Of a stretch of 9,734 bases of DNA, positions 9,243 through 9,734 are shown piece by piece. The DNA comes from a virus (Duplodnaviria > Heunggongvirae > Uroviricota > Caudoviricetes), in IMG/VR virus record IMGVR_UViG_2681813004_000016, positions 1-9,734 of that record. One strand, given 5' to 3'. The notes under the pieces are model-generated. The model was not told where the DNA came from. It did no database searches and saw nothing but the letters and a program-made list of their open reading frames with translations. The translations under genes and the position numbers were made by a program. Positions within the stretch are counted from its first letter, which is position 1, and each line of letters opens with the position of its first letter.

Positions 9243-9512
9243 TTACTTCATCCCGCCAATATTTTCCCACGTCCCGTCAGCACGCAGGATTTGCAGCGGT
9301 CTTACCACACACTGTATCAGCTTTTTATCTGTATCCAGTATCACCACCTGTGTGATTACCCTGTCCTGCTCCGGAATAATGCCATTCTCATCTGACTCCA
9401 GGATGTCTGCCGGCCCCAGTCGCAGTTGTGCTGTAAGCGACTGCACGTGTTCACGGCCATCATGCTTTCCGCAACCACACAGACGCTGCATAAGTTTTTT
9501 TAGTATATTCAT
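9243..9512 (-). CDS. Hypothetical small prophage protein (89 aa), paralogue of the upstream gene
   Basis: Real start judged to be ATG 9510-9512 (MNILKKLMQRLCGCGK...), preceded by GGAG and overlapping the upstream stop (TGAcATG). The 133-aa track ORF (to 9644) is an N-terminal over-extension across the upstream gene in another frame. Confidence 0.55.
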   Translation of the reverse strand: MNILKKLMQRLCGCGKHDGREHVQSLTAQLRLGPADILESDENGIIPEQDRVITQVVILDTDKKLIQCVVRPLQILRADGTWENIGGMK

Positions 9513-9513
9513 G

Positions 9514-9734
9514 TCATTCTCCTGTTCTGCCTGTATCACTGCCCACTTCATCCAGCCCCTTGACATCCTGCCACGGCCCGTCACCAAACCTGACCTGCAA
9601 ATGCTGAAAAAACCCCTGAACCCGTGTGGCATCTTTGGGGTCAAGAAAGGTCAGTCCGGTGATGAGTGCGCCATCTGTATCCGGGAACCAGCCATTGCTG
9701 TTTGTCTCAATAATGTTTCCCGGCCCCAGACGGG
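9514..9734 (-). CDS. Hypothetical small prophage protein, 3' portion (gene starts beyond window end); paralogue of 9243-9512
   Basis: Open minus-strand frame from the window edge to TGA 9514-9516: ...RLGPGNIIETNSNGWFPDTDGALITGLTFLDPKDATRVQGFFQHLQVRFGDGPWQDVKGLDEVGSDTGRTGE. Shares RLGP..I.E...NG..P, LD..K, Q.LQ and DG.W motifs with the downstream protein. Confidence 0.45.
   Translation of the reverse strand, partial: RLGPGNIIETNSNGWFPDTDGALITGLTFLDPKDATRVQGFFQHLQVRFGDGPWQDVKGLDEVGSDTGRTGE

Follow-up and report, generated by a model that had tools for sequence, protein, structure and literature searches.

A PfC-only paralogue gene behind a collagen-type side tail fibre gene at the end of a lambdoid tail operon

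The collagen-type tail fibre EPclA (for example ECs2717) has the architecture PfN–PCoil–Col–PfC (Ghosh et al. 2012, PMC3368898). It is a trimeric dumbbell, and the full-length protein trimerises when expressed alone in Escherichia coli (PMC3368898). Its PfC segment (residues 363–426), which has little or no α-helix, trimerises on its own and renucleates the collagen helix, and the N-terminal PfN domain is held in common with lambda Stf (PMC3368898). The small open reading frame (ORF) that is our subject goes unmentioned in that study (PMC3368898).

The pair formed by such a fibre gene and the small ORF is already known: it is annotated, under the older names L0121/L0122 in phage 933W and H0004/H0003 in VT1-Sakai, and a knockout of its small member in a Shiga-toxin phage has been published. 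In Sp5, where this member is ORF68 (ECs1229; 933W L0122 and VT1-Sakai H0003 are synonyms), Mondal et al. (2016, PMC5155283) deleted it individually and in frame and classed it as a non-essential late gene; Sp5 lacking ORF68 stays infectious on K-12. The Sp5 fibre, ORF67 (ECs1228), is essential and labels the tail end (PMC5155283). The same authors found no frameshift signal and suggested that ORF68 serves as a reservoir for fibre variation (PMC5155283). A literature search by locus tags and through Stx-phage virion proteomics returned nothing on the small protein beyond that study. Proteins of the same family, 89 aa long and 93–100% identical, occur in hundreds of Stx and non-Stx lambdoid phages.

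Here we analyse a 9,734-nt stretch of tailed-phage DNA (the window) that carries the pair at its right edge. The cassette in the window has the Sp5 layout, with an identical junction past the fibre stop (GGAGAATGACATG), an identical terminator and a 95%-identical small protein. The two settings differ: Sp5 and 933W are short-tailed phages, in which the gene lies mid-operon behind the 645-aa EPclB fibre; in the window, the prophage is a long-tailed lambdoid one, the fibre before the gene is of EPclA type, and NleG cargo comes next. Short-tailed Sp5-like Stx2a phages carry the identical collagen–PfC–small gene–terminator cassette behind the longer EPclB fibre, and no functional difference from Sp5 ORF68 is apparent.

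A small co-transcribed gene here occupies the slot of tfa in lambda, but it has no sequence relationship to Tfa (Caudo_TAP) and copies the fibre tip instead of encoding a separate chaperone fold. Nor is Tfa matched in the functional sense: the EPclA fibre trimerises without the small protein, and the Sp5 deletion is tolerated. Taken together, these two published results exclude an obligate chaperone, which leaves room at most for an accessory effect that is subtle or depends on the host.

Two PfC genes at the end of the tail operon

The upstream open frame enters the window at its edge (9732) and runs on the minus strand to TGA 9516–9514, with DEVGSDTGRTGE as its C-terminal end. Translation, a PF06820 match and 98%-identical loci identify it as the 3′ end of a fibre gene (9514–9734, minus strand; the last 72 codons plus TGA). 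This part of the product, which is the PfC end of EPclA, comprises the junction end of the collagen region and the whole PfC knob; the gene itself runs past the window edge. The frame is 97–100% identical to many EPclA C-termini and 98% identical to the 3′ end of a 437-aa tail-fibre gene after gpJ and Lom in NZ_CP148445, which PGAP names 'prophage tail fiber N-terminal domain-containing protein'. In the 98%-identical locus L001, the 437-aa protein consists of PfN, an Ala/Glu/Ser coiled coil, collagen GXY repeats and PfC, and the gene is intact in most related loci (386–440 aa, mostly 437). Judging from these 98%-identical genomes, the fibre of the window would have the same PfN, coiled-coil and collagen parts.

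The small gene (9243–9512, minus strand) has 89 codons, from ATG 9512–9510 to TAA 9245–9243, and its translated product is MNILKKLMQRLCGCGKHDGREHVQSLTAQLRLGPADILESDENGIIPEQDRVITQVVILDTDKKLIQCVVRPLQILRADGTWENIGGMK. A single unpaired base (9513) lies between the fibre TGA and the small-gene ATG (TGA-c-ATG), and the junction CAGAACAGGAGAATGACATG was found in 57 of 59 loci. A Shine–Dalgarno sequence, GGAG (9519–9522, minus strand), sits within the last fibre codons, 6 nt before the ATG. Spacing and sequence are those expected of an ordinary arrangement for translational coupling, and the small gene appears to be translated from its own Shine–Dalgarno sequence and ATG. Start signals of its own 1 nt past the fibre stop imply that fibre and small protein are produced together from the late transcript; no sigma-70-like promoter was found on the minus strand between 9513 and 9734. 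A 133-aa ORF beginning at TTG 9644 in the mechanical ORF list was rejected as a gene, being merely the small-gene frame staying open across the 3′ end of the fibre gene.

An intrinsic terminator with an 11-bp stem, a 3-nt loop and a T run was located by a terminator scan at 9204–9228 on the minus strand. It begins 15 nt past the small-gene stop and closes the tail operon, of which the small gene is the last member. The identical hairpin occurs in L001, in an Sp5-like phage (L173) and in C. rodentium, and an equivalent one in a Salmonella prophage (L086, described below). In the closest genome the order is tape measure, M, L, K, I, gpJ, Lom, the 437-aa fibre, the 89-aa small gene and NleG; phages 2B8, 1717 and VT1-Sakai share this tail gene order. 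Between Lom and NleG, the annotation shows no recombinase. The region forms the distal end of a tail-morphogenesis operon in a lambdoid prophage of the EHEC/EPEC type.

These data revise the layout given in a preliminary description of the locus, which saw two small genes, with overlapping stop and start, in a prophage cargo region. The upstream frame, as the 3′ end of what is a 437-aa side tail fibre gene in the closest complete genomes, is neither small nor cargo; only the downstream gene, at 89 codons, is small. Stop and start are 1 nt apart and do not overlap, and the proposed coupling layout holds. Both genes belong to the tail operon, as its last two members, and the NleG cargo starts past the terminator.

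The two products are clearly related. BLASTP aligns the small protein with the upstream product at 22 of 60 identical positions (37%; E = 3e-13), and the alignment includes the motifs RLGP, NG..P, LD, Q.LQ and DG.W. Both match PF06820 (Phage_fiber_C, PfC; 64 model positions) far above its gathering threshold of 25 bits: the upstream fragment over model positions 4–64 (E = 1.3e-34, 118.8 bits) and the small protein over positions 1–64 (E = 1.8e-34, 118.4 bits). No other Pfam family matches either product even at E ≤ 1, and NCBIfam has no model for either. Residues 1–89 of the small protein also align with positions 1–89 of PHROG 576 ('tail fiber protein', an 89-position profile; E = 2.1e-58), and PGAP names it 'phage tail fiber C-terminal domain-containing protein' (WP_001023445 and relatives).

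The PfC domain of the small gene is a duplicate of the fibre tip that is old and has diverged. We regard the identity of the parts, an EPclA-type fibre tip followed by a PfC-only paralogue gene, as close to certain. The earlier proposal of paralogues that duplicated and then diverged is borne out by the significant similarity, the shared family and, as shown below, the same pair in a divergent Salmonella prophage. Its statement that a family could not be assigned no longer applies, since both products belong to PF06820 and the small one to PHROG 576. The comparison with modulator/effector pairs also finds no support: the shared domain is the trimerisation knob of a virion fibre (PMC3368898), and no promoter-like site lies upstream of the small gene on the minus strand of the window. 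What had been taken for two small cargo genes is the end of a tail operon, with an assignable family and a small gene that is not debris.

Conservation and distribution of the small gene

To view the small gene in a sample that it had not itself selected, we used viral contigs retrieved through the fibre PfC (n = 72 with enough downstream DNA). An intact 89-codon ORF lies 1 nt past the fibre TGA in 70 of these loci, and the other two have truncated versions, so that the small gene stands behind a PfC-ending fibre in all 72. Summed pairwise pN/pS in this set, which spans recombining, non-independent prophage copies and so gives the direction of selection and not a precise estimate, was 0.19 for the small gene overall, 0.09 for its PfC part, 0.33 for its 30-residue leader and 0.15 for the fibre PfC. 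Of the 56 sites that are polymorphic in the small gene, 27 fall at the third position of a codon. The small gene is under purifying selection.

A Salmonella enterica prophage (L086) carries a divergent version of the pair. Its fibre is of a non-collagen type and ends in a PfC that has the fibre-type FGDGxWQD signature and a C-terminal extension, as in E. coli; the small gene encodes 79 aa and overlaps the fibre gene by 14 nt. The arrangement of GGAGG, 6 nt and ATG is kept even though the overlapped fibre C-terminus differs, and an in-frame TAA two codons before the ATG fixes the small-gene start. The small proteins of Salmonella and E. coli are ~60% identical; that of Salmonella keeps the N-terminal motif MxI[LF]KK[LI]xxxLxGCxK and has a linker 10 residues shorter. 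The presence of the same pair in so divergent a prophage indicates that the duplication predates the split of the lineages and that the two genes have been inherited together. Intactness, selection and the conserved start signals all argue clearly for a selected, translated gene rather than debris.

Variants of the two members are not tied to one another. We counted 14 fibre-PfC variants and 33 small-protein variants in 43 combinations, and such fairly free combination gives no sign of tight co-adaptation; with free combination and low variation, co-variation of fibre and small protein is uninformative. An interaction between the two products is possible.

Of 5,426 complete E. coli genomes, 698 carry the region; those that have it contain a median of 11 copies. 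The window as a whole is found in no complete E. coli genome of the collection (best coverage 66%). Among deposited phage records, 296 contain the small protein, including those of 1717, 2851, VT1-Sakai, 2B8, Evi, phi330 and many Stx1a and Stx2a phages. In IMG/VR, the small gene has 283 relatives and the fibre PfC 285. Small genes that lack a neighbouring fibre PfC are few, and all have an IS element inserted at that place.

Outside this range the family is nearly absent. Only 57 of 1.84 billion representative proteins matched, nearly all of them fragments or chimeras of the same close family, and a scan of species-representative genomes returned E. albertii, a contig of Xanthomonas pisi and one spurious match. 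The family is thus very narrow, being confined to Escherichia, C. rodentium, where the copies are decayed (for example by a 1-nt deletion), and some Salmonella. The X. pisi DSM 18956 contig (contig_138, 725 bp) encodes the small protein at 91% identity and is almost certainly E. coli or phage contamination of that assembly.

Candidate roles of the small protein

The small protein consists of an N-terminal helix, which carries the conserved motif given above, a variable disordered linker and one complete PfC. An AF2 model built on a 14-sequence alignment (mean pLDDT 73) predicts a helix at residues 3–11, disorder at 13–26 and a six-strand all-beta domain with pLDDT ~85. The protein aligns over exactly the trimerising segment of EPclA, and it has neither the shaft nor the PfN virion-attachment domain. 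At 37% identity to that segment, its PfC would be expected to trimerise as well. A sequence search of the PDB with the small protein gave nothing at E ≤ 10, and Foldseek of the model against the PDB gave no solved structure alike. The best BFVD fold matches are all tail fibres of unrelated phages and are weak (E 0.008–0.1, TMq ~0.5).

Two apparent motifs in the leader were considered and rejected. A lipoprotein rule of the PROSITE PS51257 type requires an uncharged hydrophobic core and then a lipobox before the cysteine. In the stretch MNILKKLMQRLCGC, K5, K6 and R10 fall within the would-be core on manual inspection, and the protein has no signal peptide. A CxC...H...H zinc motif was set aside because its Cys and His positions vary in the Salmonella and C. 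rodentium homologues.

We propose that the small protein serves the fibre module as a knob-only accessory, expressed but dispensable. It would probably form a shaft-less knob, or knob-only oligomer, that acts on or beside the fibre tip through PfC–PfC contacts or by docking of its N-terminal helix. Such a knob would tune fibre assembly, stability, or adsorption and host range, and would not be needed for particle formation. In this proposal, the last point would account for a gene that is dispensable on K-12 yet strictly conserved beside PfC-ending fibres. A single figure that blends the identity of the parts with the accessory mechanism would be a probability of roughly 0.6; the mechanism considered by itself is tentative, with the odds somewhat against it.

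A more specific version holds that the self-derived, shaft-less PfC knob caps or co-assembles with the fibre tip, or is freed as a receptor-binding trimer, and so replaces Tfa in collagen-tipped fibres and sets adsorption and host range on natural, O-antigen-bearing hosts. We consider this version doubtful. If it is true, the knob could influence which strains acquire Stx and type III secretion system (T3SS) effector prophages. Fibres of the PfC type are those of lambdoid and Stx prophages, by which genes for Shiga toxin and type III effectors pass among E. coli, E. albertii, C. rodentium and some Salmonella strains, and a small protein that modulates adsorption would be one determinant of the hosts that these phages reach.

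A different role was put forward by Mondal et al. (2016, PMC5155283), who speculated that the small ORF is a reservoir; as a silent cassette, it would be a spare PfC tip for recombination onto the fibre that changes receptor specificity. Two rare rearrangements are of the kind that this predicts. One E. coli contig (GCA_038404665.1; L174, 1–291), whose first bases already lie in the collagen region, has lost both the PfC proper to the fibre and the leader of the small gene: at the 11-nt microhomology GGACCGGCAGA, its allele (P0066) joins the collagen repeat directly to a small-type PfC, so that the fibre would end in the small gene's knob. In another (GCA_005381265.1; L175, 2697–3246), a 437-aa fibre, a 92-aa hybrid (P0123) and a normal 89-aa small gene stand in tandem; the hybrid joins the small-gene N-terminus out of register to the C-terminal part of the fibre PfC, and the triple PfC tandem points to unequal exchange between the paralogues. 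Against this, such hybrids have one to four database members compared with thousands of standard alleles, and none of the 72 fibre-selected loci has a swapped tip. The two PfC segments are only 58% identical in DNA, and their longest shared exact word, 11 nt, is too short for efficient homologous recombination.

The signals around the small gene also fit a reservoir poorly. A silent cassette needs no Shine–Dalgarno sequence, ATG or leader, but all three are conserved between Escherichia and Salmonella, and the leader is itself under purifying selection. The alternative tips of the Mu G segment and the P1 C segment (S/S′ and U/U′) are inverted, whereas the copies in the window are direct, on the same strand, and have no invertase or recombinase gene nearby. 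Unlike the Mu and P1 tips, the second copy in the window has its own start signals and leader, and DNA identity is too low for routine exchange. We therefore judge the reservoir unlikely.

We think it just as unlikely that the product works apart from the fibre, as soluble PfC trimers that bind the fibre's receptor after release at lysis or inside the cell. Possible effects would be less re-adsorption of progeny to debris and lysogens, or exclusion of related phages. The protein is a full trimerisation module without shaft or PfN, and PfC is the presumed receptor-binding end of the fibre (PMC3368898, discussion). Dispensability for laboratory plaque formation is usual for decoy and exclusion functions. 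The absence of a signal peptide and of an acceptable lipoprotein N-terminus speaks against this role, and the lack of a sigma-70-like promoter upstream makes expression in lysogens, which exclusion needs, unlikely.

Could the small gene instead have no function, being left over from the duplication and carried along with the fibre gene? Sp5 does without it, its family is extremely narrow, and it decays in prophage remnants such as those of C. rodentium. The selection data disfavour this reading: the ORF is intact in nearly all fibre-selected loci, its PfC part has a pN/pS of 0.09, third codon positions hold 27 of the 56 polymorphic sites, and ORF, start signals and N-terminal motif have been retained between Escherichia and Salmonella at ~60% identity. 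We consider a leftover highly unlikely. Least probable is a programmed +1 frameshift or readthrough at the fibre stop, by which a small share of the fibre would gain a second PfC domain behind the first. The small ORF does lie in the +1 frame, in E. coli (GAA TGA C ATG) as well as in Salmonella (ATGACAATATTTAA at the overlap), and a GGAG just before the UGA-C stop looks superficially like prfB. Yet the junction lacks a slippery codon, since re-pairing of GAA on AAU is impossible, and the sequence at the Salmonella junction is unrelated. Mondal et al. likewise found no signal (PMC5155283), an in-frame fusion of the fibre to the full small protein is absent from database proteins, and the GGAG has the ideal 6-nt spacing for ordinary ATG initiation.

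Other genes of the window and related phages

Directly past the tail-operon terminator, at 8386–9033 on the minus strand, the window encodes a 215-aa type III effector of the NleG family (PF06416, E = 5.8e-38) with a CPITL U-box-like motif, in a position typical of an 'exchangeable effector locus'. In phage 2B8 (L082), a 79-aa 'tail fiber assembly protein' fragment (8807–9046) lies among T3SS effectors, downstream of the small gene by ~2.5 kb; it may have remained from an ancestral stf–tfa module that the collagen–PfC cassette displaced.

The remainder of the window (1–8300) is mosaic, with sbmC (811–1284), dacD (1403–2575), a Bro-N/P22AR antirepressor-like gene (3259–4173) and an Arc-like repressor (4509–4829). 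An isolated fragment of a lambdoid tail operon, with M (5544–5873) and L (4846–5544), is absent from the closest relative, L001. A gene with a Panacea (SocA-like antitoxin) domain lies at 6801–7226; together with adjacent unannotated ORFs on the same, minus strand (6195–7226), it could be a toxin–antitoxin or defence pair in the prophage remnant. The Stx2c phage 1717 (L171) is integrated beside dacD, annotated there as penicillin-binding protein 6b. That both this phage and the prophage material of the window lie near dacD suggests a recurrent integration hotspot.
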